DNA from: Propionibacterium freudenreichii subsp. freudenreichii | GTDB taxonomy: Bacteria; Actinomycetota; Actinomycetes; Propionibacteriales; Propionibacteriaceae | DNA length: 32,000 nucleotides | Assembly (NCBI RefSeq): GCF_000940845.1 | Contig: NZ_CP010341.1 | Coordinates: forward strand, 2,400,001 to 2,432,000 | Direction of reading: 5' to 3' | Shown: positions 1,002 to 32,000 of the stretch, one piece after another | Layout of the letters: the number at the start of each line of letters is the position of its first letter | Position numbering within the stretch: position 1 is the stretch's first letter | Position numbers and translations under genes: made by a program | Notes under the pieces: model-generated | Databases searched by the model: none | Seen by the model: the letters and a program-made list of their open reading frames with translations, nothing else | Told to the model about the DNA's origin: nothing

Positions 1002-1075
1002 GCATTCTCCTCATCGACGATGCGGGGGGTGTCGCGCCCGACCGGGGCCGGGCGCGACAACCCTTCGCGTGATTA

Positions 1076-2794
1076 TCAGCTGTTCGCGAGCCGGTCGGCC
1101 AATCCCGACATGAGCAGCGCGAACGAGACCGCGCCGGGGTCCTGATGGCCCAGCGAGGCCGTGCCGTGCGTGCGGGCGCGCCCCTTGCGGGCCACCATGT
1201 CGGCGGTGGATTCCGCGCCCTTGGTGGCGGCCTTCGCGGCGGCGGCCCAGGCCGTGGCGAGGTCATCGCCGGCGTCCAGCCGCGCGGTGAGCTCGTCGGC
1301 GAACGGAGCTGTGGCGTCCACCATCGTCTTGTCGCCGGGACGCGCCTCGCCGAGTTGGGCGAAGCGGCGGGCGGCGGCGATGGCGGCGCGGCCGAGACGG
1401 TCGTCCGTGGCGGCCTGGTCGTCGGAGAGCATCGTGCCGAGTTCGCGCAGTGCGGCGCCCCACAGGGCCCCCGAGGTGCCGCCGGCGCCCTCGGACCAGG
1501 CGGCGCCGGCCACGTCGAACAGGGTGGACGTGCCGGCATGGGCGGCAACTGCCTGCTTTGCGGCCTTCAGTGCCGCGGTGCTGCCCAGCACCATGCCCTG
1601 GCCGTGGTCGCCGTCGCCGGCGATGGAGTCGAGCTTGCCCAGCGACGCCTCGTTGGCGCTCGACATGTCCGCGAGGGCCTGCAGCAGCGGCAGCAGCTCC
1701 TCGGCCTGCGCGGCGGATTCGGGGCTGCCGGCCCGGATGGCCACCTTCTCGTCATGGGCGACGACCTCGCGGCGCTGACCGGCGGTGACGCTGCCGGTCT
1801 TGTAGGCGGGCGAGTCGCCGGGGGCGAGCCACAGTTCCTCGAGGTCGGGGTCGAGGTACATCAGGGACAGGGAGACCCCGGCCATGTCGAGCGATGTCAC
1901 CTGCTCGCCGACGATGGGGTGCACGATCGTGAGTCCGTGCTCGGTGAGCAGCTTCTTCACGGTGCCGTAGAGCACGAACAGCTCTTCGTACTTGGTGGCG
2001 CCCAGGCCGTTGACCAGCACGGCAACGTGGCCGTCGTAGCCGCCGGCGGTGCGGGTGGGTTCCTCGGCGAGGACGCGTTCGACCAACAGCGTCGCGATGC
2101 CCTCGGCGGTGTCCATCTTGTGGCTGGAGATGCCGGGCTCGCCGTGGATGCCCAGGCCCAGGGCGTATTCGCCCTCCGGCACGGTGAACAGGGGCTCGTC
2201 AGCGCCGGGCAGGGTGCAGCCGGTGAAGGCGACGCCCATTGACCGGGTGGCCTCGTTGGCCTTGTTGGCGGCGGCCTCGACGGCGTCCAGGTCGCGTCCG
2301 GCGGCGGCTGCGGCGCAGGCGGCCTTCACCACGAACAGGTCGCCGGCGATGCCGCGGCGGTCCTTCCAGTTCTGGGGGGTGTCGGAGGCGATGTCGTCGG
2401 AGATGGTGACGATGCGGGTGTCGATGCCGTCGGCACCCAGGGGGGATTGTGCCGCGCCGAACTGCAGGCGGTCACCGGCATAGTTGCCGAACAGCAGCAC
2501 CGCGCCGCCGCCGTGGTCGGAGGCGCGCACCACCGACTCCACCTGCGAGGCGGAGGGTGAGGCGAAGATATTGCCGCAGACGGCGCCATGGGCCATGCCG
2601 GGGCCGACCCAGCCGGCGAAGGCCGGGTAATGGCCCGACCCGCCGCCCACGATCACGGCGACCTCGCCCTGCGGGCTGTCGGTGGCGCGGGTCACCCCGC
2701 CATGTACCTCTGTGAGGTAGTCCTCGTTGGCCGCCACCATGCCGGTCAGGCTGTCGGCGGCGAACTGCTTGGGATCATTGACCAGATACGTCAT
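1076..2794 (-). CDS. Dihydroxyacetone kinase, single-chain DhaK-DhaL fusion type
   Basis: 572-aa ORF. The N-terminal half has DhaK-like GGGSGHYPAF and GIHGEPG. The C-terminal half has the DhaL-like GDGDHG motif. GGAG RBS before the ATG at 2794. Confidence 0.9.
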   Translation of the reverse strand: MTYLVNDPKQFAADSLTGMVAANEDYLTEVHGGVTRATDSPQGEVAVIVGGGSGHYPAFAGWVGPGMAHGAVCGNIFASPSASQVESVVRASDHGGGAVLLFGNYAGDRLQFGAAQSPLGADGIDTRIVTISDDIASDTPQNWKDRRGIAGDLFVVKAACAAAAAGRDLDAVEAAANKANEATRSMGVAFTGCTLPGADEPLFTVPEGEYALGLGIHGEPGISSHKMDTAEGIATLLVERVLAEEPTRTAGGYDGHVAVLVNGLGATKYEELFVLYGTVKKLLTEHGLTIVHPIVGEQVTSLDMAGVSLSLMYLDPDLEELWLAPGDSPAYKTGSVTAGQRREVVAHDEKVAIRAGSPESAAQAEELLPLLQALADMSSANEASLGKLDSIAGDGDHGQGMVLGSTAALKAAKQAVAAHAGTSTLFDVAGAAWSEGAGGTSGALWGAALRELGTMLSDDQAATDDRLGRAAIAAARRFAQLGEARPGDKTMVDATAPFADELTARLDAGDDLATAWAAAAKAATKGAESTADMVARKGRARTHGTASLGHQDPGAVSFALLMSGLADRLANS

Positions 2795-2941
2795 CGTTCT
2801 GCTCCGAAATGTCTGCGGGGCTCACACCCCGGGTTCGATTCGCTACATCATATAGGATGCAGCGCTGGGTGGGAACACCGCTGCGCCGCTGCTTGGGGTT
2901 TCTAGGTTAGTTGCCCGCCGCTCCGGCCGAATCGGGGGCAC

Positions 2942-3772
2942 ATGCGCGCATGTGGCGTCGACCAGCCCCGAGCAGGCACCATCTCCCTGCCCATCCGCAT
3001 GCCACGAGAGGTCACGATCATCCAGAGGAGCCAAACCGCTAGCCTTGCGACTGTGGATTCGCAGTCAGCTCGCATCGATCAATTGACGCCTCTGCGCTCG
3101 CGCGCACTGGTCGACGATGTCTACGACCTGCTGCTCGACAAGCTCACATCCGGCGAGCTCGCACCTGATACGGCCCTGGGCATCGACCCGTTGGCACGCC
3201 AGTTGCGCATTTCACCCACCCCCATCCGCGAGGCGCTGGCCCGCCTGGAGCACACGGGTCTGGTCCATCGGGCGGCGAACCGGGGATATCGAGTGGCGCC
3301 CCCGCTGTCCCTTGAGCAGATGCTTGAGCTGTTGGATACCCGCCTGGTGCTTGAGGATGGTGCCATTGAGCGCGCCATGAGGCACGCGGAGGACCTGCTC
3401 CCCGACCTGGACGCGGCGTACGAAGAGCACGCCCGCGCCGCAAGGGCCCTCGAGGGATCAGGGGCCCTGCACGACCAGCATCGGATCCACGAGTACTACG
3501 CCGCCGATTGGGCCTTCCACCAGACGATCCTGGACCACTCGCACAACCGCTATATCAGCCGCGCGGTCAACTCCCTGTCCTTCAGCTTTCACCGAATGCG
3601 GCAGACCAATGCCATGGGCACCACGGACGCGCCCGTCGCACTCGCGGAACACGCGGCAATCCTCAATGCGGTGCGCACACTCGATGCCGCCGCCGCCCGT
3701 GAGGCCCTGGACGTCCACCTTGCAAGCCTCACCAAGCGGGCGACCGACGCCGCCGGCAACCCCACCGACTGA
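2942..3772 (+). CDS. GntR-family transcriptional regulator (FadR/FCD-like C-terminal half)
   Basis: Winged-HTH block LARQLRISPTPIREALARLEHTGLVHRAANRGYRVAPP followed by a helical effector-type half. Divergent from the DHA kinase gene. Start uncertain (ATG 2942 or ATG 2999). Confidence 0.8.
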   Translation: MRACGVDQPRAGTISLPIRMPREVTIIQRSQTASLATVDSQSARIDQLTPLRSRALVDDVYDLLLDKLTSGELAPDTALGIDPLARQLRISPTPIREALARLEHTGLVHRAANRGYRVAPPLSLEQMLELLDTRLVLEDGAIERAMRHAEDLLPDLDAAYEEHARAARALEGSGALHDQHRIHEYYAADWAFHQTILDHSHNRYISRAVNSLSFSFHRMRQTNAMGTTDAPVALAEHAAILNAVRTLDAAAAREALDVHLASLTKRATDAAGNPTD

Positions 3773-6592: not shown

Positions 6593-8028
6593 GGCTCATC
6601 ATAATCCACGGTGTAGCTGAGGTCTGAACCCGCCGGTTTCGAGGAGGGATCTGGCGACATAGTGGGTGAGGTTGCGGAAGCCGAGGGCTGATCCGCGGAG
6701 GTGCTCGAGGCGGCCATTGATCGCCTCTGTGGGACCGTTGCTGGTGCCGGGCCGGTCGAAGTAGGCCAGCACGTCGACCGCCCGCTGCTTCAGCGTGCGG
6801 CCCAGTGTGCGGAGTTCGACCAGCGCTGCTGGGACGCCGCTGGCGAGGCTGGCGATGAGCTTGTTCATGAGGTCTCGGCCGCGAGCAGGGTCGGGGTCGC
6901 GGTAGGCGGTGACCATGCGTTGGTAGGCCGCCCAGGTGACCTCAAGTTCGGTGTGCGCCTCGTCAGCGAACAGGGCGTCAAGCCGGGTCTTCTGTTTGTC
7001 GGTGAGCAGCGATGCTCCGGTGTGCAGGGTTCGCCGGGCCGAGTAGAGCGGGTCGCCGGCACGGCCGCGGTGGCCGTGCAGATCCTGTTGGATTCGACGG
7101 CGGCACCGGTCGAGGGCGTCGCCGGCGAGCCTCACGACATGGAAGGGGTCCATCACCGCGACCGCATCAGGCAACTCCTCGGTGGTGGCGGTCTTGAATC
7201 CGGTGAAGCCGTCCATCGCGACGACCTCCACCCGGTCGCGCCACGCCTGGTCACGCTCAGACAACCACTGCTTGAACACGCTCTTGGAGCGGCCCTCGAC
7301 CATGTCCAGCAACCTGACCGGTCCACTGTTCGTCCTTGCCGGCGTCAGGTCGATGATCACGGTCACGTACTTCTCGCCGCGACGGGTGTGCCGCCACACG
7401 TGCTCATCCACGCCGATCGTGGTCACCTTGTCGAACCGGTGCGGGTTGTTGATCAGCACCCGCTTACCCTCGGCGAGCACCGCGTCGTTCGCTGTGTTCC
7501 AGCTGATGTCCAAGCCTTCGGCGATCCGGGCCACGGTGAGGTGGCGCACCACGATCCCTTCCAACGCCCACCGCAGCCCGCGGCGCGACAGTCGGGTCTT
7601 GGCCTCCGCGGCCCGGCTCGTGTCCTGGCGCCACACATGAGCGCAGTCGGCGCACCGGTACCGGCGGACGAGCACCTCCAGCAGGGTCGGCCGCCACCCG
7701 AGCGGTTCGTGAGCGAGCCGACGCACCACCGTGTCCCGCAACACACCATGCTGGCCGCAGCGGTGGCACCAGTCGTCCGGCTCGACAACCTGACAAGCGA
7801 TCACCGCCCGTCCAGGCTCGAGTCGTTGACCAACCGCAACCAGGCCCAGCTCGTCGAGCCGGCAGAAGGTGGTCAGGTCAGGGGTCGCGAAGGTAGCGTC
7901 AGGCACGTCGAGGTCTTCCCGATGGGTTGGTGTGAGAACCCCCATCCTCGGAAGACCTCGACCCCTACCCGGTGACCGACACACCAGCCACCATCACACC
8001 CCCACTACACCGTGGATTGTGATGAGCC
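6593..8028 (-). mobile_element. ISL3-family insertion sequence, copy 1 (1436 bp)
   Basis: Ends GGCTCATCATAATCCACGGTGTAG (6593, IRR) and CTACACCGTGGATTGTGATGAGCC (8028, IRL) form a 24-bp IR with 1 mismatch. Identical to copies 2 and 3 as far as I can compare. Plus-strand flanks TGAATACC and CGTTTCGC do not match each other. Confidence 0.95.
6599..7984 (-). CDS. ISL3-family transposase
   Basis: 461-aa ORF with an N-terminal zinc-finger-like CHRCG...CADC and DDE-type body, identical in all three copies. The real start is probably the GVL/VPDATF-proximal GTG, about 26 codons into the track ORF. Confidence 0.95.
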   Translation of the reverse strand: MCRSPGRGRGLPRMGVLTPTHREDLDVPDATFATPDLTTFCRLDELGLVAVGQRLEPGRAVIACQVVEPDDWCHRCGQHGVLRDTVVRRLAHEPLGWRPTLLEVLVRRYRCADCAHVWRQDTSRAAEAKTRLSRRGLRWALEGIVVRHLTVARIAEGLDISWNTANDAVLAEGKRVLINNPHRFDKVTTIGVDEHVWRHTRRGEKYVTVIIDLTPARTNSGPVRLLDMVEGRSKSVFKQWLSERDQAWRDRVEVVAMDGFTGFKTATTEELPDAVAVMDPFHVVRLAGDALDRCRRRIQQDLHGHRGRAGDPLYSARRTLHTGASLLTDKQKTRLDALFADEAHTELEVTWAAYQRMVTAYRDPDPARGRDLMNKLIASLASGVPAALVELRTLGRTLKQRAVDVLAYFDRPGTSNGPTEAINGRLEHLRGSALGFRNLTHYVARSLLETGGFRPQLHRGL

Positions 8029-8372
8029 CGTTTCGCGGGGATCGCGAGGACCTGGCTGATCGTGGCGATCGCGTCAGGTGCCCGGTAGCTGGCGTAGGTG
8101 AAGAACGACCGCAGCGCCGCCCGGCGGGCGTTGCGGGTCGCGACGGAGTTCCCGCGCTCGGTTTCCAGGTGCTGGAGGAACCCGCCGATCAGGTCTGCGT
8201 CGAGATCGGCCAGCGTCAACGCCGATGGCGCGATCCCGGTGGCCCGCTCAGCGTAGGTCAGTAGGAGCCGGAACGTGTCGGCGTAGGCGGCTTTCGTGTG
8301 CGGGCTGGCATCCAGATGCCGGTCGAGCTTGTCGGTGAAGAACCGTTGCAGCAACGGCGCGAGGTCACTCAT
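8029..8372 (-). pseudogene. RIT third tyrosine recombinase (ritC-type), N-terminal SAM-like domain fragment cut by ISL3 copy 1
   Basis: MSDLAPLLQRFFTDKLDRHLDASPHTKAAYADTFRLLLTYAE...NARRAALRSFFTYASYR is a phage-integrase N-terminal domain. The native sequence stops at ...AIPAKR where the IS IRL begins. The ATG at 8372 overlaps the ritB stop. Confidence 0.85.
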
Positions 8373-9296
8373 CACCGCCCCCTCTCGCTTGGATGCGCTC
8401 CGCGAGAGCAGCCGCCAGTTCGGGAGTGTTCGACAGATACCAGTAGGTCGCCTCCGGGCCGACGTGTCCGAGGAACGCCGACAGCACCGGCATCATCGCG
8501 TCGACATCGCCGCCGGTTCGGATGTGCCCGATCAGGGTGTTCGTCGCGAACGAGTGCCGGAAGTCGTGCAGCCGGGCGGCCGGCTCGGTCGGCCCGCCGG
8601 CCAAGCCAGCGGCCTCGCGGATCTCTCGGAACGTGTTCCCCGCGGTTGAGCGGGCGATCCGGGTGCCTCGGCGGGCGACAAACACCGCGGTCGTCTTCGG
8701 GACCGGGAACGTCCGATCCCGTAGCCGCCGATACCTGCGGATCGCGGTCATCGTCGTCGGGCGGAGTGGGACGAGGCGGGACTTGCCGAACTTCGTGTCC
8801 GTGACCCGCACCCAACCGCTGCCATCACCGGCATCGTCGTCGATGGTGATGTCGTCGTCGTTGAGGTTCCTCGCTTCGCTGATCCGCATCCCCGTCACCG
8901 TCAGCAGTCCGAGTAGCGTTTGCCAGGAAGCCGCCCGGACTCGTGGGGTCAGCCTGCCGCGACCAGCAGCGTGTCGATCTGCTGGTCGGTGAAGATCCGC
9001 GGGCGAGGACGATGAGCGCCGTAGGGTCGTCCGTCCAGGACGGGGACCTCGGTCGCGGGGTCGAACCAGGCGACATGCTCGGCGAACTGGCGGACATAGT
9101 TCAGTCGCTCCAGCACCGTGCCGCGGGAGAACTGTGCTGCCCACGCGGTCGCCAGATCCCGGCGGATCGTGGGCTCACCGGCGTCTTCCATCCAGCCGAC
9201 GAACGCATCCAGAGTCTTGCCTGGCGCGACGAGCTTGAACCCGAGTGCCCGCCGGGTCGCCAGGTAACCGTCCATCAGATCGCGCAACCCGCTCAT
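8365..9296 (-). pseudogene. RIT second tyrosine recombinase (ritB-type) with a 1-nt frameshift near 8950
   Basis: The N-terminal part (9296 to 8949, ...IFTDQQIDTLLVAAG*) and the catalytic part (...LTPRVRAASWQTLLGLLTVTGMRISEA...HDFRHSFAT...LGHVGPEATYWYL) are in different phases. The ATG at 9296 overlaps the ritA stop as ATGA. Confidence 0.8.
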
Positions 9297-10234
9297 CGTG
9301 GACACCTGCCCAATGACGCGGCCGCCGGCCATTCGGGTGCGAGAGCGGTGAGCCGGTTCTTGTCGACCTTGGCGTAGAGCGCGGTCGTGCGTAGATGCGC
9401 GTGGCGTAGCAGCCCCTGGACCTCCTGCAACGTCGCCCCAGTGGCGAGCATCCCGGTCGCGAACGTGTGCCGCAGCCGGTGTGGGCCGAACTTCTCCACC
9501 CCGGCCTTGATGCAGATTTGCCGGATCGTCCCGCAGACACCGTTGGCGCTCAGTGGCTGGACCGGATCGATGACCGTCCAGAACACCTCCTCGCCCTGGA
9601 CCCTGCCGCCGCGGCCGTGGAGCACGTAATCCTCCAAGGCGTGGCCGACCTCGTCGGGCAGTGGGAGCTCATCGACACGGTCGCCCTTGCCCCGGATGCG
9701 TAGGCTTCCGGTGCGCCAGCCGATGTCGTCGAGCCGAAGGCCGGCGATCTCACAAGCGCGCAGCCCGAGCCCGGTAAGAAGCAGCAGGATCGCCCGGTCA
9801 CGCAGCCCTTTCGGTGAACGCAGATCGAGAGTGTCGAACAGTGCCTCGATCGTGCCCGCCGGCACCGGGTCCGGAATCGATGAGAGTCGCCACGCCGCCG
9901 CGTGCGGCACCACCCCGGACAGGTCCTGTCCCATCCGACCGGAGCGGTGAGCGTACTGCAGAAACGAGCGCAGCATCACCAGCTGCTTGCCCAACGTCGA
10001 TGCCTTCAGCCCACGCGCTGCTTCCAGGTCCACCCACTCGATCAGCATCGCCGCGGTCAGCTTCCGCAGCGACTCCTCGACCGGCGCGGGCAGCCACTCC
10101 ACGAATGCTGCGACGCGAGCCGTGTACGCGGCAGCCGTGCACTCCTGCGCTGATCGCTCTTGGAGCAGCCACCTCTCGAACTCATCCAGCACATCCCGCA
10201 CGTCGGCGCGGCGCTGATCACGATGAACCACCAT
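9293..10234 (-). CDS. RIT first tyrosine recombinase (ritA-type), apparently intact
   Basis: 313-aa ORF with an N-terminal SAM-like domain and catalytic residues in GLRACEI, HRLRHTFAT and LLRHAHLRTTALYAKV. Confidence 0.9.
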   Translation of the reverse strand: MVVHRDQRRADVRDVLDEFERWLLQERSAQECTAAAYTARVAAFVEWLPAPVEESLRKLTAAMLIEWVDLEAARGLKASTLGKQLVMLRSFLQYAHRSGRMGQDLSGVVPHAAAWRLSSIPDPVPAGTIEALFDTLDLRSPKGLRDRAILLLLTGLGLRACEIAGLRLDDIGWRTGSLRIRGKGDRVDELPLPDEVGHALEDYVLHGRGGRVQGEEVFWTVIDPVQPLSANGVCGTIRQICIKAGVEKFGPHRLRHTFATGMLATGATLQEVQGLLRHAHLRTTALYAKVDKNRLTALAPEWPAAASLGRCPR

Positions 10235-10313
10235 CTCGGTCCTCCTCGACCTGAAGCCGAGCGATCCCAGCGACCGCCCCGGTCAGATCAAGCGAACCCC
10301 GACTCCAGAGCCA

Positions 10314-10412
10314 ATGGTTATGTTGACCGGCTCAACCATTCACCCCTGCCCCGCCTGGGCGCTCACCGAGCCGGTCAACATAACCCCGAGGTCGACATAC
10401 CATCGCCAGATC
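10314..10412. repeat. RIT terminal module (ritA side): perfect 18-bp inverted pair with a 34-nt spacer, plus 27 bp
   Basis: GGTTATGTTGACCGGCTC (10316-10333) and GAGCCGGTCAACATAACC (10368-10385) are exact reverse complements. The whole 99 bp equals the reverse complement of 30594-30692 with 1 mismatch. Confidence 0.9.
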
Positions 10413-10467
10413 ACTGCTCGAGACCGGAGGCTTCAGACCCCGACTACACCCTCAATTATGAAGAGCC
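10396..10467 (+). mobile_element. ISL3-type 3' tail relic (last ~19 codons plus terminal IR)
   Basis: Reads HTIARSLLETGGFRPRLHPQL* and then ends ...CTACACCCTCAATTATGAAGAGCC. It is colinear with the 3' end of the intact copies (HYVARSLLETGGFRPQLHRGL*...GATGAGCC). Confidence 0.8.
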
Positions 10468-10817
10468 GGTCAAGGCCGAGGGACGCTGCCCGCCCCTGCC
10501 GCACCACCCGTTCCGCACAGCGAGGAAGACCTTACCGATGTCGATCCGACTGGCGTCGGAGGGGACCTCCAGGTGACCAGCGTCCCGTCGGCAGTGCGTG
10601 GGTCTACAACCACCGACTTAAACCGCTATGGCCGCCGGTGATTGACTTCGTGCGCCGATCAGCTGCTGGGCGTCCGGAAGTCCTTGCTATCTATTGCGGC
10701 GGTCTCGGATGTCGTCGCGCTATGCGTTGATACCGCACTTGATTCCACTCGATGGGACAATCGGTTTGGGATGCATAGAGGGGTTGTAGAAAGGGCATTC
10801 AGAAGGGGCGGTAGGGG

Positions 10818-11120
10818 ATGGCCAGAGACTATGACGCGCCGCGCGAGACGGATGAGGACCTGACCGAGACGCCGGTGGCGGAGATGCCGGGGCGTGAGCC
10901 GAGCGTGGCCACGATCGATGATGACGAGGACCTGCTCCTCGCGGAGACATTTGAGCTTCCTGGGGCCGATCTGTCCGGTGAGGAACTCACCGTCCAAGTC
11001 GTCCCGAAACAGAAGGACGAGTTCACCTGCACCCGGTGCTTCCTGGTTCACCACCACAGCCAGCTGGTCAGCACCGTGGGCAGCGAGCCGGCGGTGTGCG
11101 CCGAGTGCGCGACGGAGTGA
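10818..11120 (+). CDS. DUF4193-family protein
   Basis: 100-aa acidic protein MARDYDAPRETDEDL...FELPGADLSGEELTVQVVPKQKDEFTCTRCFLVHHHSQL...CAEC. The pattern matches my recollection of the conserved actinobacterial DUF4193 family. Confidence 0.85.
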   Translation: MARDYDAPRETDEDLTETPVAEMPGREPSVATIDDDEDLLLAETFELPGADLSGEELTVQVVPKQKDEFTCTRCFLVHHHSQLVSTVGSEPAVCAECATE

Positions 11121-11123
11121 GCG

Positions 11124-11387
11124 GTGCCGGACCTGGGCGGGCTGGTCGTGGTGCTCATCTTGGCCGTCTGCCTCGTCAGCATGCTGCTCCTGGCCCCGCT
11201 CGTTGAGGCGTGGCTCTGGCGGGCGATCGGCCACGAGAACCACACCGGTGACAACTGGCCTGCCGCCGAGGATGAGTCGCCAAGCCTTGCAGGTCAGGCG
11301 CGGCCTTCGCCTTCGGTGAGCCCGGCGTCCGTGGAAGCGGCGTCGCTTTCTCACCGCCGCAGCACGGGCGGGGCGCCGGTGTCGTGA
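11124..11387 (+). CDS. Small hypothetical membrane protein
   Basis: GTG start 4 nt after the DUF4193 stop. One clear TM segment (LVVVLILAVCLVSMLLLAPLV). High third-position GC. The stop overlaps the next start as GTGA. Confidence 0.5.
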   Translation: MPDLGGLVVVLILAVCLVSMLLLAPLVEAWLWRAIGHENHTGDNWPAAEDESPSLAGQARPSPSVSPASVEAASLSHRRSTGGAPVS

Positions 11388-11858
11388 CGGGGCGACGGCT
11401 GAACGGCAGAGAGCTCGGCCTGCCCGGTCTGGCGGTAGCGCTCAGTGAGGCCACTGACTGGCGCGGCGAGGCACTCGAGCAGCTCGGCTTGGTGCGGTGG
11501 GAACCAGGGATGGGCGCGGTGCCGGTGCTGGAGGGCATCACCGCGGACCTGACGGCTCGCCGGTGGGTCCTCATCGAACGGTCCGGGCCCCGCGAGGAGC
11601 CCACGCTGCTCGTCTCTGGCTTGTTCACCGGCCCGCACCCGATCGTATGGGAGCGTCTGGTCCACCACGGCGGCGGACTCCTCCTCGCCGTCCACGACTC
11701 CGCACCGGAGGGTCAGATGCCCTCATTGTGGGTCGGTGTGGTGCGCGCCCACGTGGGTCGCGCAACCGACATGACGCCACCGGGCCCGCCGGTATATAGT
11801 GGTGCCCCGGGCTTCGGCGGCACCCCGTCTGCCACCAGGGCAGGAAGAATGACAGGAG

Positions 11859-13997
<2,139 letters not shown>

Positions 13998-14066
13998 CCC
14001 GCTGCGCGGTACTGCACCTGCGGTCATTCCGGCGCCGGGTCGGTCCGCAAGGTGGTGTGAGGTCAC

Positions 14067-14495
14067 GTGAGCGAACACGGCGGTTTGGAGGAAGACAGCT
14101 GGGCAACCTCGTTCCGGTCCCGTCTCAACTTCCTCGTGGCTATGGTGCCCCCGCCGTCTGGTGAAAAGTGGACCAACGAACTCATCGCAGAGGAGTGTTT
14201 GGCCAGGGGAGTGGAAGCCACTTACTCCAATATCGCCCATCTCAGAACGGGCCGCCGGACGAACCCGTCAGCCCGTCTCGTGGGCGCTCTAGCACAGGTT
14301 TTCGGGGTCGACGTTGACTACTTCTTCAACGATCTCCGCGCCCATCAGATTCAGAAGCAGTTCCTGGCGCTGCAACAGCTCCGCGAGTCCGGAGTGAAGA
14401 TCGAGGGCATCGCAGCCCGCGGTGAGGGTCTGAACCCCGACCTGGTGATGGAAGCCATCAGGGCTCTGCGCCGTGACTCAGACGACCGACGATGA
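14067..14495 (+). CDS. XRE-type HTH DNA-binding protein with EspR-like architecture
   Basis: FRSRLNFLVAMVPPPSGEKWTNELIAEECLARGVEATYSNIAHLRTGRRTNPSARLVGALAQVFGVDVDYFFND, followed by a helical C-terminal half. This parallels the mycobacterial EspR layout as I recall it. Confidence 0.75.
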   Translation: MSEHGGLEEDSWATSFRSRLNFLVAMVPPPSGEKWTNELIAEECLARGVEATYSNIAHLRTGRRTNPSARLVGALAQVFGVDVDYFFNDLRAHQIQKQFLALQQLRESGVKIEGIAARGEGLNPDLVMEAIRALRRDSDDRR

Positions 14496-14504
14496 CGTCG
14501 TAGA

Positions 14505-14978
14505 GTGACTCACCAGCTTGTGATCATCGACAAGCGGGGGGAGAGTCCGATGAACGTTCGACACGTGTTTTCGACGGTTCTTCGTGATGTCAGGTCAGTG
14601 GACGAGGCCATCAAAGCGACGAGCGCTGCCACAGGGCGACCCATCTGTCTCCAAGAGGTCTCATACCTAGGACAGCAGGGCCCTTCCGGTCTTCTGGTGC
14701 AGTCCGGATCATGTGATGTCATCCAGCTACCATCCGGCGTATCTGGTCGCCGTCGGGTCGGGATCATTGGTCATGAGCTTGGCCACCTCCTTCTGGGGCA
14801 TCAGCCCGAGGATCTCTCTGGCTTGTTTTCCATCGACCCGGACATCGTCAAACGGATCTTGGCTCGTCACCACTTCGACGACAGGAAGGAGCGAGACGCT
14901 GAGCTGATTGGCACGATGCTGGCTCAGACCATCGGAAGGAATCTTCAGTTCGAAGGTCTGTGGAGCTGCCTGTCATGA
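14505..14978 (+). CDS. ImmA/IrrE-like HEXXH metallopeptidase-domain protein
   Basis: IIGHELGHLLLGH motif in a 140-157 aa protein directly downstream of the HTH gene. Start uncertain (14505 or ATG 14550, MNVRHVF). Confidence 0.65.
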   Translation: MTHQLVIIDKRGESPMNVRHVFSTVLRDVRSVDEAIKATSAATGRPICLQEVSYLGQQGPSGLLVQSGSCDVIQLPSGVSGRRRVGIIGHELGHLLLGHQPEDLSGLFSIDPDIVKRILARHHFDDRKERDAELIGTMLAQTIGRNLQFEGLWSCLS

Positions 14979-15058
14979 CGATTGACCTGGTGCTTGTTGG
15001 CTTGTGGCTGGTGGGGATCGTCGACCTGACACGCACTCTGCGAGGACGATCTGATCCT
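14975..15058 (+). pseudogene. First 28 codons of a membrane protein, truncated by ISL3 copy 2
   Basis: The ATG at 14975 overlaps the peptidase stop as ATGA. Reads MTIDLVLVGLWLVGIVDLTRTLRGRSDP and then runs into the IS IRL at 15059. Confidence 0.5.
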
Positions 15059-15102
15059 GGCTCATCACAATCCACGGTGTAGTGGGGGTGTGATGGTGGC
15101 TG

Positions 15103-16488
15103 GTGTGTCGGTCACCGGGTAGGGGTCGAGGTCTTCCGAGGATGGGGGTTCTCACACCAACCCATCGGGAAGACCTCGACGTGCCTGACGCTACCTTCGC
15201 GACCCCTGACCTGACCACCTTCTGCCGGCTCGACGAGCTGGGCCTGGTTGCGGTTGGTCAACGACTCGAGCCTGGACGGGCGGTGATCGCTTGTCAGGTT
15301 GTCGAGCCGGACGACTGGTGCCACCGCTGCGGCCAGCATGGTGTGTTGCGGGACACGGTGGTGCGTCGGCTCGCTCACGAACCGCTCGGGTGGCGGCCGA
15401 CCCTGCTGGAGGTGCTCGTCCGCCGGTACCGGTGCGCCGACTGCGCTCATGTGTGGCGCCAGGACACGAGCCGGGCCGCGGAGGCCAAGACCCGACTGTC
15501 GCGCCGCGGGCTGCGGTGGGCGTTGGAAGGGATCGTGGTGCGCCACCTCACCGTGGCCCGGATCGCCGAAGGCTTGGACATCAGCTGGAACACAGCGAAC
15601 GACGCGGTGCTCGCCGAGGGTAAGCGGGTGCTGATCAACAACCCGCACCGGTTCGACAAGGTGACCACGATCGGCGTGGATGAGCACGTGTGGCGGCACA
15701 CCCGTCGCGGCGAGAAGTACGTGACCGTGATCATCGACCTGACGCCGGCAAGGACGAACAGTGGACCGGTCAGGTTGCTGGACATGGTCGAGGGCCGCTC
15801 CAAGAGCGTGTTCAAGCAGTGGTTGTCTGAGCGTGACCAGGCGTGGCGCGACCGGGTGGAGGTCGTCGCGATGGACGGCTTCACCGGATTCAAGACCGCC
15901 ACCACCGAGGAGTTGCCTGATGCGGTCGCGGTGATGGACCCCTTCCATGTCGTGAGGCTCGCCGGCGACGCCCTCGACCGGTGCCGCCGTCGAATCCAAC
16001 AGGATCTGCACGGCCACCGCGGCCGTGCCGGCGACCCGCTCTACTCGGCCCGGCGAACCCTGCACACCGGAGCATCGCTGCTCACCGACAAACAGAAGAC
16101 CCGGCTTGACGCCCTGTTCGCTGACGAGGCGCACACCGAACTTGAGGTCACCTGGGCGGCCTACCAACGCATGGTCACCGCCTACCGCGACCCCGACCCT
16201 GCTCGCGGCCGAGACCTCATGAACAAGCTCATCGCCAGCCTCGCCAGCGGCGTCCCAGCAGCGCTGGTCGAACTCCGCACACTGGGCCGCACGCTGAAGC
16301 AGCGGGCGGTCGACGTGCTGGCCTACTTCGACCGGCCCGGCACCAGCAACGGTCCCACAGAGGCGATCAATGGCCGCCTCGAGCACCTCCGCGGATCAGC
16401 CCTCGGCTTCCGCAACCTCACCCACTATGTCGCCAGATCCCTCCTCGAAACCGGCGGGTTCAGACCTCAGCTACACCGTGGATTATGA
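15103..16488 (+). CDS. ISL3-family transposase
   Basis: Identical 461-aa ORF. The probable functional start is GTG 15181 (VPDATF...), immediately after the leader hairpin. Confidence 0.95.
   Translation: MCRSPGRGRGLPRMGVLTPTHREDLDVPDATFATPDLTTFCRLDELGLVAVGQRLEPGRAVIACQVVEPDDWCHRCGQHGVLRDTVVRRLAHEPLGWRPTLLEVLVRRYRCADCAHVWRQDTSRAAEAKTRLSRRGLRWALEGIVVRHLTVARIAEGLDISWNTANDAVLAEGKRVLINNPHRFDKVTTIGVDEHVWRHTRRGEKYVTVIIDLTPARTNSGPVRLLDMVEGRSKSVFKQWLSERDQAWRDRVEVVAMDGFTGFKTATTEELPDAVAVMDPFHVVRLAGDALDRCRRRIQQDLHGHRGRAGDPLYSARRTLHTGASLLTDKQKTRLDALFADEAHTELEVTWAAYQRMVTAYRDPDPARGRDLMNKLIASLASGVPAALVELRTLGRTLKQRAVDVLAYFDRPGTSNGPTEAINGRLEHLRGSALGFRNLTHYVARSLLETGGFRPQLHRGL
15125..15180 (+). promoter_or_regulatory. 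Leader stem-loop ending at the transposase start codon
   Basis: GTCGAGGTCTTCC-GAG-GATGGG, a 14-nt loop, then CCCATC-G-GGAAGACCTCGAC gives 13-bp plus 6-bp stems. The 3' arm contains the purine-rich GGGAAG just before GTG 15181. Present in every copy and, with changed sequence, in the diverged relatives. Confidence 0.6.
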
Positions 16489-16494
16489 TGAGCC

Positions 16495-16906
16495 CCTATG
16501 GGTACTGGCCATGGCCTACGGGCCGGTGCGCCTGGTCCTGCTGGCGGTGATGGCGATCGGGGCGGTGAGTGCCACCCTGATCCTGGGAGCCGACTTGTGG
16601 GAGCGCCCACGGCGGCGAGCCCAACGTGAGCAGGTCATCCTGTTCAATTTGGCCACCACCGCGACCGTGGCCATCGGGGTTGTGGTGTTCTACCTCGTCT
16701 TATTCATCCTGTCCTGGGTCGGCGCGCTGCTGCTCATCGACGAGCAGGTACTGGCCGGTATCGCCGGGAACCCAGTGAACGCTTTGGACTACGCGAAGAT
16801 CAGCTGGCTCACCGCCAGCCTGGCCACCGTGGGCGGAGCACTAGGAGCTGGACTGGAGGACGACGATGTGGTGCGCGCCGCTGCCTACACCCGGCCCAGC
16901 ACCTGA
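16495..16906 (+). pseudogene. C-terminal (multi-TM) part of a conserved membrane protein; the N-terminal part is at 25661-26384
   Basis: Reads LWVLAMAYGPVRLVLLAVMAIGAVSATLILG...DDDVVRAAAYTRPST* in phase from the 8-bp duplication CCTATGGG. Confidence 0.85.
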
Positions 16907-16919
16907 CACAGCCCCAGCA

Positions 16920-17445
16920 CGCCACGCCCAGTCCTTCGGCAACTCGGGCCATCGACAGGTGGCCGACGACGATCCCGACCAGACCCCACCGCAGGCCGGC
17001 GCGGGAGATCTTGGCCCGCGGCGGCGCCGCAGCGGTGGTGTCCTGACGCCACACGTGCGAGCACTCCTTGCAGCGGTAGCGGCGCACGGTGAGCACCAGC
17101 GTGGTAGGGCGCCACCCGAACGGCTCGTGCGCCAACTCCCTGCTCACCGTGTCACGGGGCACGCCCTGGCAGCCGCACCGCCTGCACCAGTCGTCCGGCT
17201 CCACGACCCGGCACGCCAGCACGGACCGGTCAGGCTCGAGCAGCTGGCCGGTGACCTCCAGACCGAGGCCGTCGAGGCGGGTGAAGGTAGTCAGGTCAGG
17301 GCGCGTGAAGGTAGCGTCAGGCACGTCGAGGTCTTCCGGACGGGTTGTGTGAGAACTCCCATCATCGGAAGACCTCGACCCTCACCCCGACACCGACGCG
17401 CCGCCCCAGGTCGCACCACAGCTACACCCTCATCTGTGAAGAGCC
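16920..17445 (-). mobile_element. Relic of a second ISL3-type element (IRL plus about 130 N-terminal transposase codons)
   Basis: IRL GGCTCTTCACAGATGAGGGTGTAG (reverse complement ending at 17445), the leader hairpin, then VPDATFTRPDLTTFTRLDGLGLEVTGQLLEPDRSVLACRVVEPDDWCRRCG...ARVAEGLGV. Homology stops about 16920-16935. The inner boundary is approximate. Confidence 0.8.
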
Positions 17446-17529
17446 CCTCAAGGGCGCTGCGCGTCGCTGCGCGATGCCGCCTGCGGCGGCACCCTTGACT
17501 GCCACCCTCCACGCACCTGCTGGCAACTA

Positions 17530-18111
17530 TCAGGACGAAGGGGTGCTCTGGGCTCGGGCAAGGGCTCGGCGTACCGATGACGTGCTCACGCCGAGCACGG
17601 TGGCGATGTGCGCGTTGCTCTGGCCCTGCGCCTTCATGCGCAAGGCGGCGTCGATTCGCTCCGACCCCATGACGGTGGGGCGGCCGCCGACCCTCCCCTG
17701 GGCCCGCGCATAGGCCAGGCCGCGCCGGGTGTTCTCCCGGATCGTGTCCACGCGCAACTGAGCGAACACGGCCATAATCCCCACAATGGCCTGGCCCATC
17801 GGGCTCGACGTGTCGATGCTCAGCGCCGGCTCCGTCAAGCTCTTGATGCTCACGCCCTGCCCGATCAGGTCATGGACGATCTCGATGGCCATGACCTCGC
17901 TTCCGGCCAGCCGGTCCAGCGCCCGGAACACCAGCGTGTCGCCCGGACGCAGATAGTCGCGGCACGCCAACCACTGCGGCCGGTCGGCCGCACGGCTGGA
18001 CTCGCCGTGGTCCACGAACACGCGCTCGGCCCCGGCCGCGCGCAGCTCCGCCTCCTGGGCGGCCGGAGTCTGTTCGCGCGTGGACACGCGTGCGTACCCG
18101 ACGATCGTCAT
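17530..18111 (-). CDS. Serine recombinase (resolvase/invertase type)
   Basis: MTIVGYARVSTREQ catalytic N-terminus, a resolvase core, and a C-terminal HTH (SNAHIATVLGVSTSSVRRAL). The ATG at 18111 overlaps the upstream stop as ATGA. Confidence 0.9.
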   Translation of the reverse strand: MTIVGYARVSTREQTPAAQEAELRAAGAERVFVDHGESSRAADRPQWLACRDYLRPGDTLVFRALDRLAGSEVMAIEIVHDLIGQGVSIKSLTEPALSIDTSSPMGQAIVGIMAVFAQLRVDTIRENTRRGLAYARAQGRVGGRPTVMGSERIDAALRMKAQGQSNAHIATVLGVSTSSVRRALARAQSTPSS

Positions 18112-18887
18112 CGGCTCCCCCGTCCTCTCGGCTCTCCTCGGTGCGGGTCGTCATCGTCATCGCGCTTCGCGCGACGCCGTTCCATCTCGCTCTCGATACG
18201 TTCGTGCAGGCCAGCCCGGGTGTTCTCACGCCGGACGCGGGCGTGAATGCTCGATGCCCACGCCTTGGTGCGCATCTTCACATCGTCGAGCTGACCAGCC
18301 GTCAGACCGTAGACGCGCACCTCTTCGGGCTGGATACGCTCCACGTTGTCAAGGTTCTGGGCGAACCATCCCAGGTCGAAGCCAGCATCGACTCCCCGGA
18401 CCAAGTCCAGCAGTTCCTCGTCGCTGTACCGGCCGGAACGCCGGATCGCGTCCACATCGAGGTAGTCGCGGGTCTCGGCCCGCGAGAACAGGGCCCCGAC
18501 CTTGTTGCCCACCGCGTCCTCAATGGACAAGACGGGCCCGACCTCCAGCCGCACGGGCGGGTGAGCCCGCCAGTCCACGCCCAGGTCCATGTCAGTGCTG
18601 CGCCCTTGCGCGCTGACGATGGTGAGCTGGGCGAACGTGTCCTGCCGCCGGCGGCTCTCCACGGTGTAGCCGGCCGCACGCAGCGCCGCAATGATCCGGT
18701 CGAGCGACGTGCCGAACCGTGCCTGGGCCTGCTGGACGGTGAACAGGTCCACGTCCTCGGTGGGCCGGTCGATCAGCCCGTGCTCACGGATCGCGCCCGA
18801 GCCGGCCAGGGCGAAGCCGGCATCGTCGCCGACGGCCTCCAAGGCCAGGCGCGTGATGCGCCGCTGCTCCTCCTGATCTCTGCTCAC
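18108..18887 (-). CDS. DUF1814 nucleotidyltransferase toxin (AbiEii / MenT type)
   Basis: NTase motif FALAGSGAIREHGLIDRPTEDVDLFT near the N-terminus of a ~259-aa protein. I take the GTG at 18887, which overlaps the upstream stop as GTGA. The track ORF extends to 19094 inside the upstream gene. Confidence 0.8.
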   Translation of the reverse strand: MSRDQEEQRRITRLALEAVGDDAGFALAGSGAIREHGLIDRPTEDVDLFTVQQAQARFGTSLDRIIAALRAAGYTVESRRRQDTFAQLTIVSAQGRSTDMDLGVDWRAHPPVRLEVGPVLSIEDAVGNKVGALFSRAETRDYLDVDAIRRSGRYSDEELLDLVRGVDAGFDLGWFAQNLDNVERIQPEEVRVYGLTAGQLDDVKMRTKAWASSIHARVRRENTRAGLHERIESEMERRRAKRDDDDDPHRGEPRGRGSR

Positions 18888-19216
18888 ACGACGACCCGAA
18901 GCCGGGGGAACCTCTTCTCCCACAGGCCGCGCACGCGCGGATCCATGTTCAGAATCGGCCACGCCTCGATGAGCCGATCTCGGTTCATCAAGCGGCGCTG
19001 CTGATCGGCAGTCCCCTCGGCGAGCAACGCCTGGTAAGCCATGCGACGCCAACCCAGGTTCGACACGTCCACGTCGAACCGATCGGCCTGCCAACGCACA
19101 GAGTGTGGCAGGTCGATGGGCCCGTCATAGGGTCCGCGCAGCTCGTCGAGCGAAGCGGGCGCGTCATAGGGCTTGACATCGCGGAACCGCACACGAGCCG
19201 CTGTCACCTCAGCCAT
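18884..19216 (-). CDS. 110-aa protein, candidate cognate antitoxin or partner of the NTase
   Basis: Position and 4-nt coupling to the NTase gene. I could not recognise a wHTH/AbiEi domain in MAEVTAARVRFRDVKPYDAPASLDELRGPYDGPIDLPHSVRWQ... Confidence 0.55.
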   Translation of the reverse strand: MAEVTAARVRFRDVKPYDAPASLDELRGPYDGPIDLPHSVRWQADRFDVDVSNLGWRRMAYQALLAEGTADQQRRLMNRDRLIEAWPILNMDPRVRGLWEKRFPRLRVVV

Positions 19217-19572
19217 GGCCCGCCTCCTTCCATCTCATCCCAGTTTACCCGGCCAGGTCGAAAACGGTCTATCACCCGTTTCGGTTTCGGTGGGGGTTTT
19301 GACCACCCTTCGACCGCCAACTTACGCGGGTCATGTCAGTTTCCGAAGTCGGCTGCACGGAAGTTCGAAGTCGTCTGCACTCTGTGCTCAGGTATGCCGC
19401 GCGAGCGCTCGGGTGCAGGTCGATGGGACGCCTCCAGGGATGTCCCTGGAGGTCCTGGAGGCCGCCATGGCCACCGACGCGGGCTGGAATCTGTTGCGGT
19501 CGCGTCGTGTGGGCTGTGGTGGTATCATGGGAAAGACGAGGCCCGGAGGGCCGGGCCACCGGTCACTGAGAG

Positions 19573-21300: not shown

Positions 21301-21348
21301 CCCCCATCAGAAAAGAAGCCACAGAGGGTCCAGGTGCGGGAATAAAAC

Positions 21349-30538: not shown

Positions 30539-30610
30539 GGCTCATCGCGAATGAGAGTGTAGGAGCGGTCTGAATCCGCCGGCTTCGAGGAGCGATCTGG
30601 CGATGGTATG
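30539..30610 (-). mobile_element. ISL3-type 3' tail relic (mirror of 10396-10467)
   Basis: The plus strand starts GGCTCATCGCGAATGAGAGTGTAG. The minus strand reads HTIARSLLEAGGFRPLLHSHSR*. Same length as the other tail, with about 73% identity to it outside the shared 17 nt. Confidence 0.8.
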
Positions 30611-30692
30611 TCGACCTCGGGGTTATGTTGACCGGCTCGGTGAGCGCGCAGGCGGGGCAGGGGTGAATGGTTGAGCCGGTCAACATAACCAT
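30594..30692. repeat. RIT terminal module (ritC side), inverted copy of 10314-10412
   Basis: 18-bp arms at 30621-30638 and 30673-30690. The module starts 9 nt after the ritC stop codon (30700-30702). Confidence 0.9.
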
Positions 30693-30699: not shown

Positions 30700-31355
30700 T
30701 CACCGGTTCTTGAGGAACGCGATGAGAGCGTCGGATGCCTTGTATCGGGCTGGTGGCCGCTCGTCGAGCGCGGGAACGCGTTCGAGGGTTCGCTGCTTGA
30801 GTTCCAGGTCGGCATGCAAGTAGATCTGCGTGGTCTGGATGCTCGCGTGCCCGAGCCAGAGCGCGATGCTGGCGGTGTCGATGCCGGCGTGCAGGAGGCT
30901 CATCGCGCAGGTGTGCCGCAGCGTGTGCGGCGTGACGTTCTTCCCTGTCAATGAAGGACACCTCTCGGCCGCGGTCGCGGCGTGCCGGGTAACGAGCTTC
31001 CCAACGGCAGCCCTGGTCAGGGGTGTCCCGCTGTTGGTCGGGAACAGCGGCCCCTCTCGCGCTGGTGGGAGCTCGGCGAGCCAGGCCGTGAGGAGCCTGA
31101 CGGTGTTCTTCTGCAACGGGATCACGCGTTGCTTGCGGCCCTTCCCGACGCATTCGAGTTGGCTGTGTGGTCCGAGCTGAAGGTCACCGACGCGCAGGTT
31201 GATGAGTTCGCTGACGCGGAGTCCGGTTTGGATGCCCAGGTGCAGCAGGAGCCGGTCGCGGCGACCGAGCCAGGTCCGGGTGTCCGGGGCAGCGATGAGC
31301 GCCTCTGCTTCGGGGCGGTGAGGAACGACACGAGCGTGGTCTTGGTGCGTTTCGC
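30700..31355 (-). pseudogene. RIT third tyrosine recombinase (ritC-type), C-terminal catalytic fragment
   Basis: ...PEAEALIAAPDTRTWLGRRDRLLLHLGIQTGLRVSELINL...HTLRHTCAMSLL...LGHASIQTTQIYLHA. Cut at 31355 by another ISL3-type IRL. The phase differs by 1 nt from the N-terminal fragment, with an indel in the C-run at about 31312-31320. Confidence 0.85.
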
Positions 31356-32000
31356 GGCTCTTCACGAACGAGGGTGTAGCGGGTTGAGCGTGTCGGTGGC
31401 CGGGTAGGGGTCGAGGTCTCCCTGAGGATGGAAGTTCTCACACTCGCCATCTGCCGGAAGACCTCGACGTGTCACACCCTACTTTCACTACACCTTGCCT
31501 GACCACGTTCTGCGGTCTCGACGAGCTCGGCCTGGAGGCTGTCGGGCAGCGTCTGGACCCGGATCGGGCGGTGATCGAGTGCCGTGTCGTGGAGCCGGAC
31601 CGGTGGTGCCGCGAGTGTGGATGCGAGGGCGCCCCGCGCGACACGGTGATCCGTCGGCTCGCGCATGAGCCATTCGGGCATCGGCCCACGACCCTGCTGA
31701 TCCGGGTCCGGCGCTACAAATGCTGCGGGTGTGGGCGGGTCTGGCGGCAAGACACCACGGCCGCCGCGCCGGTACGGGCGAAGATCTCCCGCGGTGGGTT
31801 GGCGTGGGGGCTGGCGGGCTTGGTCCTCGATCATCTCTCGGTCACGCGTGTCGCGGCAGGGCTGGGGGTGTCCTGGTCCGCCGCGAACGACGCGATCCTC
31901 GCCGAGGGCCGCCGGCGGCTGATCGATGACCCGGCGCGGTTCGAGGGCGTGACCACGATCGGCGTCGACGAGCACGTGTGGCGACACACCCGCCACGGCG
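31356..32000 (+). mobile_element. Diverged ISL3-family element, left part (continues beyond the window)
   Basis: IRL GGCTCTTCACGAACGAGGGTGTAG at 31356, the leader hairpin, then the transposase. Clearly a different lineage from the three identical copies. Confidence 0.9.
31469..32000 (+). CDS. ISL3-family transposase (5' partial, open at the window end)
   Basis: GTG 31469, then VSHPTFTTPCLTTFCGLDELGLEAVGQRLDPDRAVIECRVVEPDRWCRECG...TTIGVDEHVWRHTRHG. Colinear with the 461-aa transposase. Confidence 0.9.
   Translation, partial: MSHPTFTTPCLTTFCGLDELGLEAVGQRLDPDRAVIECRVVEPDRWCRECGCEGAPRDTVIRRLAHEPFGHRPTTLLIRVRRYKCCGCGRVWRQDTTAAAPVRAKISRGGLAWGLAGLVLDHLSVTRVAAGLGVSWSAANDAILAEGRRRLIDDPARFEGVTTIGVDEHVWRHTRHG

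Follow-up and report, generated by a model that had tools for sequence, protein, structure and literature searches.

A split RIT element between two severed ISL3 tails in Propionibacterium freudenreichii points to site-specific integration of its clade near the 3' end of ISL3 transposase genes

One split RIT element and two ISL3 tails

The stretch of DNA analyzed here (the window) comprises 32,000 nt of Propionibacterium freudenreichii subsp. freudenreichii (NZ_CP010341.1, positions 2,400,001 to 2,432,000) and carries the genes ritA, ritB and ritC of a RIT element together with insertion sequences (IS) of the ISL3 family (Table 1). Both RIT ends found in the window belong to one RIT on the minus strand, which was split so that its terminal modules now face each other across 20 kb, with an ISL3 tail lying between each module and the intervening DNA.

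By its sequence, the window element is a canonical RIT, i.e., three adjacent, distinct tyrosine recombinase genes with overlapping open reading frames (ORFs) in a unit of ~3 kb with terminal inverted repeats (IRs). All three window reading frames gave Pfam Phage_integrase matches, and reciprocal blastp of an intact relative against the trio on Cupriavidus necator pHG1 resulted in one-to-one pairs (RitA with gene 1, 37%; RitB with gene 2, 37%; RitC with gene 3, 47%), the cross-matches to non-cognate pHG1 genes being far weaker. The exact RitA sequence of the window likewise matched the first gene of canonical pHG1 trios. Candidate catalytic motifs, read by eye from the translations, are ...HRLRHTFA...LLRH...LY in RitA, ...FRHSFA...LGH...YWY in RitB and ...LRHTCA...LGH...IY in RitC. 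An intact copy (L017, 6829-9958; L numbers denote loci retrieved for comparison) is 3,130 bp long, has the order ritA-ritB-ritC and is bounded by 93-bp terminal modules, and the 8-bp overlap of ritB and ritC recurs in L005. Previously described RITs share the gene order, the ATGA-type overlaps, a length of ~3.1–3.5 kb, terminal IRs, palindromic ends and the presence of several copies in some genomes (Van Houdt et al., 2009, 2012; Janssen et al., 2010); gene overlaps of this type (PMC2864759; PMC3414803) and palindromes at RIT ends (PMC5737581; PMC3414803) were mentioned before, and Rit proteins have been assigned to the Xer-like “simple” tyrosine recombinases (PMC8138268).

The window copy itself is damaged. 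An indel scan against the intact sequence revealed a 4-nt length difference in ritB, which loses its register near 8951, whereas DSM 20276 and sister copies have an intact ritB of 323 aa. In the C-terminal part of ritC, one nucleotide is deleted from a run of C (~31312–31315); this deletion is common to the window and DSM 20276 and missing from four intact sister copies. Furthermore, ritC is contiguous in L017, L087, L088 and L096 and unsplit in DSM 20276 and P. freudenreichii JS9, JS18 and JS21.

A preliminary description of the window, made from its letters only, had reported perfect 18-bp inverted pairs at both RIT ends, embedded in a 99-bp inverted repeat with one mismatch beyond which identity falls to 40/55, and tails representing the 3' ends of ISL3 elements. 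Recomputation reproduced all of these points. The 18-mer GGTTATGTTGACCGGCTC (10316-10333) has its perfect reverse complement at 10368-10385 behind a spacer of 34 nt, and an equal perfect pair is located at 30621-30638 and 30673-30690. Positions 10314-10412 are identical to the reverse complement of 30594-30692 at 98 of 99 positions (sole mismatch at 10358), and 10413-10467 to that of 30539-30593 at 40 of 55; a repeat search of the window returned a single 155-nt inverted repeat (10314-10468 and 30538-30692, 90% complementary). Each tail is colinear with the final 61 nt shared by the three intact ISL3 copies of the window (49/61 and 47/61 identical), including the C-terminal codons (HTIARSLLETGGFRPRLHPQL and HTIARSLLEAGGFRPLLHSHSR compared to HYVARSLLETGGFRPQLHRGL in the intact copies, each followed by the stop) as well as the ISL3 terminal IR.

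The edge of the element, in turn, had to be relocated. It had been placed after CATACCATCGCCAGATC (10412), but lies 6 nt further in, at 10406/10407 (mirrored at 30599/30600) and right after CATACCATCGC, where all RIT copies stop matching. Here, the match to a RIT of Actinomyces provencensis that is 99.6–99.7% identical to the window RIT ends exactly at 10406, and the alignment of every copy is confined to positions 1-3130 of the intact element. The RIT end reads ...GGTCGACATAC-CATCGC, in which CATAC is RIT sequence and CATCGC represents 6 bp common to element and target, while the adjoining CAGATC is ISL3 sequence that both window tails have in common by chance. The 155-bp arm is a composite of an inner 93-bp RIT recombination module and an outer 61-bp severed ISL3 3' end. 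Tail L is a remnant of the integration target and lies outside the RIT; tail R is a target remnant from a different ISL3, the two tails being identical at 46 of 61 positions. Exact matches to tail R were found beside sister RITs, comprising the junction-proximal 45 nt in L037 and the tail portion in L089 and L094, and the outer flanks of L089 and L094 beyond this part differ from those of the window.

Table 1. Features of the RIT element and of the ISL3 copies in the window (positions are those of the 32,000-nt stretch).
Feature	Position	Strand	Remarks
ISL3 copy A	6593..8028	-	Identical to B and C; left end abuts N-terminal part of ritC
8-bp repeat GCGAAACG, copy 1	8029..8036	-	At ritC break
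ritC, N-terminal part	8029..8372	-	8-bp overlap with ritB (8365-8372); cut at 8029 by left end (left IR) of ISL3 copy A
ritB, frameshifted	8365..9296	-	ATGA start overlaps ritA stop (9293-9296)
ritA, intact, 313 aa	9293..10234	-	Pfam Phage_integrase and SAM-like domain; 36–37% to first gene of pHG1 trio
RIT terminal module, ritA side, 93 bp	10314..10406	-	Sequence identity; homology with other RITs stops at 10406. Inner 18-mer 10316-10333; variable spacer 10334-10367; outer 18-mer 10368-10385; outermost arm GGTCGACATAC 10390-10400; 6-bp core CATCGC 10401-10406
Tail L, last 61 nt of ISL3	10407..10467	+	~19 codons, stop and terminal IR (tip 10467); 49/61 identical to 3' end of copy B; similar tails flank RITs at ~20 other loci
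ISL3 copy B	15059-16494	+	
ISL3 copy C	24225-25660	-	
Tail R, last 61 nt of another ISL3	30539..30599	-	Tip 30539; 47/61 to copy B
RIT terminal module, ritC side	30600..30692	+	98/99 to other module. Core GCGATG 30600-30605; arm GTATGTCGACC 30606-30616; outer 18-mer 30621-30638; inner 18-mer 30673-30690
ritC, C-terminal part	30700..31355	-	Abuts left end of second, diverged ISL3 at 31356
8-bp repeat GCGAAACG, copy 2	31348..31355		At other ritC break
Diverged ISL3	31356..32000	+	70–77% identical to A, B and C; left end abuts C-terminal part of ritC; continues past the window

Target site and ends of the RIT clade

For comparison, ~40 related RIT copies from genomes and metagenomes were considered; a genome scan with RitA yielded 20 loci in Actinomycetota, a metagenome scan with the palindrome described below 65 loci, and an exact-protein look-up 12 more. 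Two types of junction were observed. In the first, the module with CATCGC is joined to an ISL3 tail; in the second, an ISL3 body ending in ...GGxTTCCGCAACCTxACCAACTA-CATCGC is followed by a 20-bp palindrome (TTATGCGGAATTCCGCATAA) and then by the GCGATG-module. At least 27 body-palindrome-module and at least 20 module-tail junctions fall on one identical nucleotide, they derive from many different ISL3 variants and hosts, and five further loci with the exact RitA protein add more such ISL3 junctions. The target of the RIT clade of the window is ...AACTA-CATCGC^C(AGATC / CGCAGC)..., located within the last ~20 codons of the ISL3 transposase gene (...GGCTTCCGCAACCTCACCAACTACATCGCCAGATCGCTCCTCGAG... 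across CATCGC^C) in the codons for Asn-Tyr-Ile-Ala-Arg at the C-terminal edge of the ISL3 DDE domain, and the 6-bp CATCGC is the sole identity between RIT and target.

Uninterrupted ISL3 copies read ...CTACATCGCCAGATC... or CTATGTCGCCAGATC at the insertion point, as in the empty sites ...AACTACATCGCCAGATC... of L081 and ...CACTATGTCGCCAGATC... of window copies A, B and C. In silico deletion of the RIT of L006 and rejoining of body and tail restored a protein of 436 aa in which the DDE_Tnp_ISL3 domain is complete. The palindrome always resides on the side of the ISL3 body, and this side adjoins ritA ten times and ritC eleven times; Tessaracoccus massiliensis even harbors four identical RITs, among which ISL3 junctions occur in both orientations.

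Most complete elements, ~14, have a body on one side and a tail on the other (L001, L006, L008, L012, L013, L025=L079, L045, L050, L066, L089, L090=L091=L093, L092, L095). Two have tails on both sides (the window locus and L016), one has bodies on both sides (L062) and one locus has mixed targets (L037=L094). An obligatory association of the module with ISL3 tails, which had been proposed as a check, was not found, since ISL3 bodies with palindrome and non-IS targets were seen as well. RIT copies that are at least 99.3% identical (99.3–99.7% over 3,130 bp) occur in at least six different flank contexts. The presence of near-identical RITs in so many surroundings implies that the RIT family moves as a unit, while the window copy, being frameshifted, split and present at one locus, does not.

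Altogether, these sequence comparisons support site-specific integration of this RIT clade near the 3' end of the ISL3 transposase gene in either orientation. This had been one of two readings offered for the window and it holds with regard to the target, but it alone fails to explain tails on both sides, as a simple insertion gives a body with palindrome on one side and a tail on the other.

The ends of the element were defined from 37 distinct modules. Conserved parts are the core GCGAT, an outermost arm GGTATGTCG, an outer arm GGTTATGTTGACCG and an inner inverted arm CCGGTCAACATAAC; the 13-nt arm cores are kept at an arm-to-arm spacing of 55–58 nt around a ~40-nt spacer of free sequence, and the outermost arm is 16 nt away from the next one. 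Since arms and spacing are conserved and the spacer sequence is not, the paired 18-mers are plausible candidates for recombinase-binding arms. Formation of a hairpin or cruciform by the paired 18-mers was considered and rejected: a mutation in one arm of L002 is uncompensated in its partner, so that the arms, whose sequence is conserved around a free spacer, behave like protein-binding sites.

The halves of the palindrome are related to the module arms, and in L013 the palindrome reads TTATGTTGAATTCAACATAA. The body-side junction ATTCCGCATAA-GCGATG-GTATGTCGACC displays the 11-6-11 layout of dif (GGTGCGCATAA-TGTATA-TTATGTTAAAT; PMC3025954), and its arms agree with those of E. coli dif at 14 of 22 positions, a value reached by 0 of 167,946 background positions; CATCGC, with its 6 bp, also has the length of a Xer central region. 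Moreover, the first two core nucleotides differ among junctions (AT, GT, GG); the ISL3 body of L025, L039 and L079 reads TACGGCGC, and sister RITs carry GGCGC at one end (L077, L010, L053), as would be predicted for a core that serves as the exchanged overlap. Half-palindrome, 6-bp core and outermost module arm could together constitute a crossover site of the Xer/dif type with 11-6-11 geometry. An excised RIT would then be a circle with two mirror-image cores placed back-to-back around the palindrome. Such a symmetric double core would allow insertion either way round with the palindrome always on the body side, the paired 18-mers may serve as accessory binding sites for the three Xer-like recombinases, and core nucleotides would be carried from site to site as the exchanged overlap.

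Origin of the tail-RIT-tail copy and alternative explanations

As a simple insertion leaves a body with the 20-bp palindrome on one side and a tail on the other, a single insertion cannot produce tails on both sides. In the window, no palindrome was found with up to three mismatches allowed. The two tail-RIT-tail loci also lack an 8-bp duplication: the outer flanks of the window unit, GGTCAAGG and GCTTTGGC, do not match, as had already been pointed out, and the suggested search at other such units gave the same result for L016 (TCGTACCG and CCTTTGCC). The most plausible origin of this arrangement is a secondary recombination involving two ISL3 targets, by which the side with body and palindrome would have been replaced by the tail of a second ISL3. 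One possible route is an exchange catalyzed by the RIT, in which the inner core at the body-side junction recombines with the target site in a second ISL3, and which would lead to deletion, inversion or replicon fusion; the other is homologous recombination between two RIT copies in opposite orientation.

Forms that an exchange between two targets would be predicted to yield were found among the related loci. L062 shows the palindrome and two different ISL3 bodies, one on each side; in L037 and L094 a non-IS body with palindrome is combined with an opposite side whose visible tail sequence agrees exactly with window tail R, and in L089 the tail R sequence is located on the ritA side. In the orphan junction L073 (637-1851; palindrome region 643-666), an ISL3 transposase is cut at ...NLTNYIA by the palindrome; AGCGC and unrelated DNA come next, and a RIT is missing. 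A reciprocal-type product of this kind would be expected when recombination separates a RIT end from its palindrome. No body-palindrome-body junction was detected among the 65 metagenome loci.

The tail-RIT-tail unit of the window occupies a single fixed locus in at least five genomes, including P. freudenreichii JS9, JS18 and JS21 and a contig of A. thoenii DSM 20276; L016, the other locus of this form, has no long ritC ORF. The missing palindrome, the missing duplication, the fixed locus, the frameshifts in ritC and ritB and the later splitting of ritC by ISL3 activity suggest that the window copy was stranded and has been decaying after loss of its palindrome, and that it represents a relic rather than a new composite transposon. 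We consider it likely that RIT modules joined to two ISL3 tails, site-specific targeting of ISL3 by the clade and a later rearrangement leading to this relic together account for the locus.

Several points weigh against this explanation or restrict its reach. Some RITs of the same clade sit in a second, non-IS target, making ISL3 the main and not the sole target. None of the three testable ISL3::RIT composites shows a perfect 8-bp duplication (none in L006 and L025; 6/8 in L013), so body and tail may often stem from different IS copies even in seemingly canonical insertions, or recombination between IS copies may be frequent. For the tail-RIT-tail form, homologous and site-specific exchange are indistinguishable and both routes appear roughly equally likely, and the reciprocal product of the exchange is not present in the window. 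Regarding the crossover site, the arms match the predicted dif of the actinobacterium Frankia alni at only 12 of 22 positions, which is unexceptional against background. Moreover, none of the 65 metagenome loci showed a circular or tandem junction (module-palindrome-module), and experimental movement of a RIT has never been achieved (PMC10214605), which is why the circle and the position of the crossover are inferred.

An alternative option could be that one ancient RIT insertion was spread as an ISL3::RIT composite by transposition of the IS, so that the junction was inherited. Such a composite retains both IS ends and could move in trans, and L005 and L007 indeed have an identical tail at two different genomic sites. 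However, RITs of at least 99.3% identity are joined to ISL3 bodies and tails with many differences (e.g., L001 compared to the window) as well as to a non-IS gene, and these identity figures already suggest that RIT and adjoining ISL3 do not co-diverge. Both gene orientations are equally frequent, even within one genome, and a perfect duplication is missing from all three testable composites. The existence of a distant RIT family with the same palindrome, another core and another target rather points to a specificity determined by the recombinases, and we regard spreading by the IS as quite improbable.

The second reading of the preliminary description, according to which a RIT captured ISL3 ends on both sides and the resulting 3.25-kb tail-RIT-tail unit is a non-autonomous passenger moved in trans by ISL3 transposase, similar to a miniature inverted-repeat transposable element, could be derived from the fact that the unit is bounded by two ISL3 right-end IRs in inverted orientation and that identical, active ISL3 copies are abundant in the genome (PMC5644110). 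In disagreement with such a role, neither tail-RIT-tail locus has an 8-bp duplication, the two tails differ at about a quarter of their positions (46/61 identical), and the unit stays at one fixed locus in at least five genomes. With tails on both sides in only 2 of ~18 complete elements, and with RITs of at least 99.3% identity adjoining other tails, ISL3 bodies or non-IS flanks, this reading is highly improbable. Finally, it is almost certainly wrong to regard the full 155-bp arm as decayed ISL3 3' sequence, with 18-mers derived from coding or terminal-repeat-like IS sequence. One frame of the module does read NGYVDRLNH, which faintly recalls the ISL3 motif NGPTEAINGRLEH and lies about as far from the tail, and GGTTATGTTGACC loosely resembles the ISL3 tip GGATTATGATGAGCC. 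However, the same architecture occurs beside ISL3 bodies, where it would duplicate the coding region, and beside non-IS targets; TTATG-containing arms are shared with the palindrome and the second RIT family; upstream of the core, the module aligns with ISL3 no better than GC-rich DNA would be expected to; and no significant homology was found between the 93-bp module and coding sequence of the ISL3 3' end.

Beyond the window, with a probability we would place slightly short of even, RITs in general could be self-encoded, Xer-like integrating elements, each lineage of which homes to a short, conserved motif within the coding sequence of another mobile element's catalytic gene via a palindromic double-core site. 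If so, the ISL3-targeting clade would hit the Asn-Tyr-Ile-Ala codons, and a sister clade with the same palindrome but a different 6-bp core the Leu-Arg-His codons of box II in tyrosine recombinase genes. The double-core site would allow either orientation, carry core nucleotides onward and recombine different IS copies, and tail-RIT-tail, body-RIT-body and orphan-palindrome junctions would be expected along with deletions, inversions or replicon fusions.

Related systems, rearrangements and neighboring DNA

In anecdotal cases, RITs were earlier seen to interrupt tnpA of the IS66 family, a Tn6049-like transposase gene and radC in two species (PMC2864759; PMC3414803), and in a 2023 comparison of tyrosine-recombinase transposons target specificity and movement of RITs are listed as not tested (PMC10214605). 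The ISL3 target, the exact junction, the one-sided palindrome and the dif-like core were not found in the accessible literature, including a full-text search for RIT together with ISL3; priority is uncertain, as Ricker et al. (2013) was outside this scope. Compared to known RITs, the target nucleotide, the shared 6-bp core, the one-sided 20-bp palindrome and the three-arm module are now defined for an actinobacterial clade, and the window copy differs as a rearranged, palindrome-less pseudo-element.

Likeness to Xer/dif and to integrative mobile elements exploiting Xer (IMEX) lies in the putative crossover site with its 11-6-11 geometry and 14/22 agreement with the E. coli dif arms. In contrast to these systems, the RIT encodes three recombinases of its own instead of borrowing XerCD, and its target is a transposase gene, not dif. 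Tn554-type transposons, strand-biased circularizing integrative elements (SE) and GInt islands likewise rely on several recombinases and integrate site-specifically without target duplication. SE and Tn554 carry ~6 bp of the previous site into the new junction (PMC10214605), and the variable first two core nucleotides of the RIT behave similarly; however, Tn554, SE and GInt belong to other recombinase families with other gene sets, have no such terminal IR modules or central palindrome, and their targets are not IS genes. As to ISL3 itself (ISAar20-like copies of P. freudenreichii), the outer 61 nt of the arm share the last codons and the terminal IR GGCTC(A/T)TC...GGTGTAG, whereas the window tails are 61-nt stumps of two different elements, in which the transposase body is missing, and the unit is not flanked by an 8-bp duplication.

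RITs are widespread, and none has been mobilized in the laboratory. The exact RitA protein was found in 1,235 blocks of public assemblies, mostly contigs of 2–5 kb, which might reflect a multi-copy repeat assembling by itself. For one RIT clade a nucleotide-exact target, defined ends, a candidate core, a one-sided palindrome and an array of candidate binding sites are now available, i.e., the parts required for an integration/excision assay and for the assignment of sites to RitA, RitB and RitC. The comparison also shows the RIT to be a mobile element specialized in inactivating another one, as ISL3 loses its last ~20 codons and its right end, and the reshuffling of IS copies can be a by-product. 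In annotations, the tail-RIT-tail unit should appear as a RIT pseudo-element with an ISL3 fragment on either side; this feature of the window is itself ordinary decay, and the rule that it exposed is what is useful.

The second, non-IS target of the clade was observed in L003, L010/L011, L037/L094, L053 and L077. Its core is ...GAGTACATC(G/A)C, and it is located close to the 5' end of a short ORF, which comprises 164 aa once rejoined and lacks a Pfam match. Positions 2882-14936 of L010 and 1-12055 of L011 are 100% identical over 12,055 nt including the RIT, and the contigs are assigned to Propionibacterium cyclohexanicum DSM 16859 and Bifidobacterium subtile LMG 11597, respectively, which indicates either a very recent transfer or assembly contamination. 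A second RIT family (L026-L030, L035, L041, L043-L046, L049, L052, L056, L057, L064-L072, L075, L076, L078, L083) possesses three integrase genes (L043, 2610-5873; example locus L043, 2450-5999) and the same 20-bp palindrome, with a different module (GCGGCATTAGGTGGACGGCGGGGTTATGCGCCC...) and a different core, GCG(N)CA. It is inserted into tyrosine recombinase genes at ...PYDLRH/ACVSTW..., where the codons specify Arg-His of box II.

Each half of ritC adjoins the left end of a different ISL3 element, and these two elements are 70–77% identical to each other. Compared to JS18, window positions 8029-15058 are inverted between copies A and B, and the split looks like an intramolecular, two-ended IS event. 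In pHG1 of C. necator (L086, 1434-3520), the ISL3-family element ISAe1 directly follows the shortened third rit gene of one trio, and insertion of ISL3 into ritC may thus be recurrent. The right flank of copy B (CCTATGGG, 16495-16502) is the reverse complement of the left flank of copy C (CCCATAGG, 25661-25668), indicating one 8-bp duplication separated by an inversion between identical inverted IS copies. Strains of P. freudenreichii were reported to differ by transposon-mediated inversions (PMC5644110), and IS-mediated inversions also distinguish the strains compared here. The 23.3-kb segment 8029-31355 was also considered as a captured circular plasmid, which was rejected, as the same locus with unsplit ritC is present in P. 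freudenreichii chromosomes of 2.66–2.72 Mb; a megablast of this segment against PLSDB plasmids returned no RIT of this type.

Within the intervening DNA, 14068-21921 is inverted in DSM 20276 (L017) relative to the window, with 21921 joined to 14067, and no convincing inverted repeat was found at the 14067/21921 breakpoints. DSM 20276 also lacks the IS481-like element of the window (20203-21295; 34-nt IRs at 20195-20228 and 21270-21303). The block encoding a resolvase, an AbiEii toxin and a regulator (~17445-19329) is 91% identical to ~31-kb plasmids of Cutibacterium acnes and C. granulosum. Finally, the 1.2 kb of 25661-26840, which begin exactly at the end of copy C and contain ORFs with no Pfam match, are 98% identical to “hypothetical protein” regions of Rhodococcus/Nocardia plasmids and may represent another mobile element interrupted by copy C.

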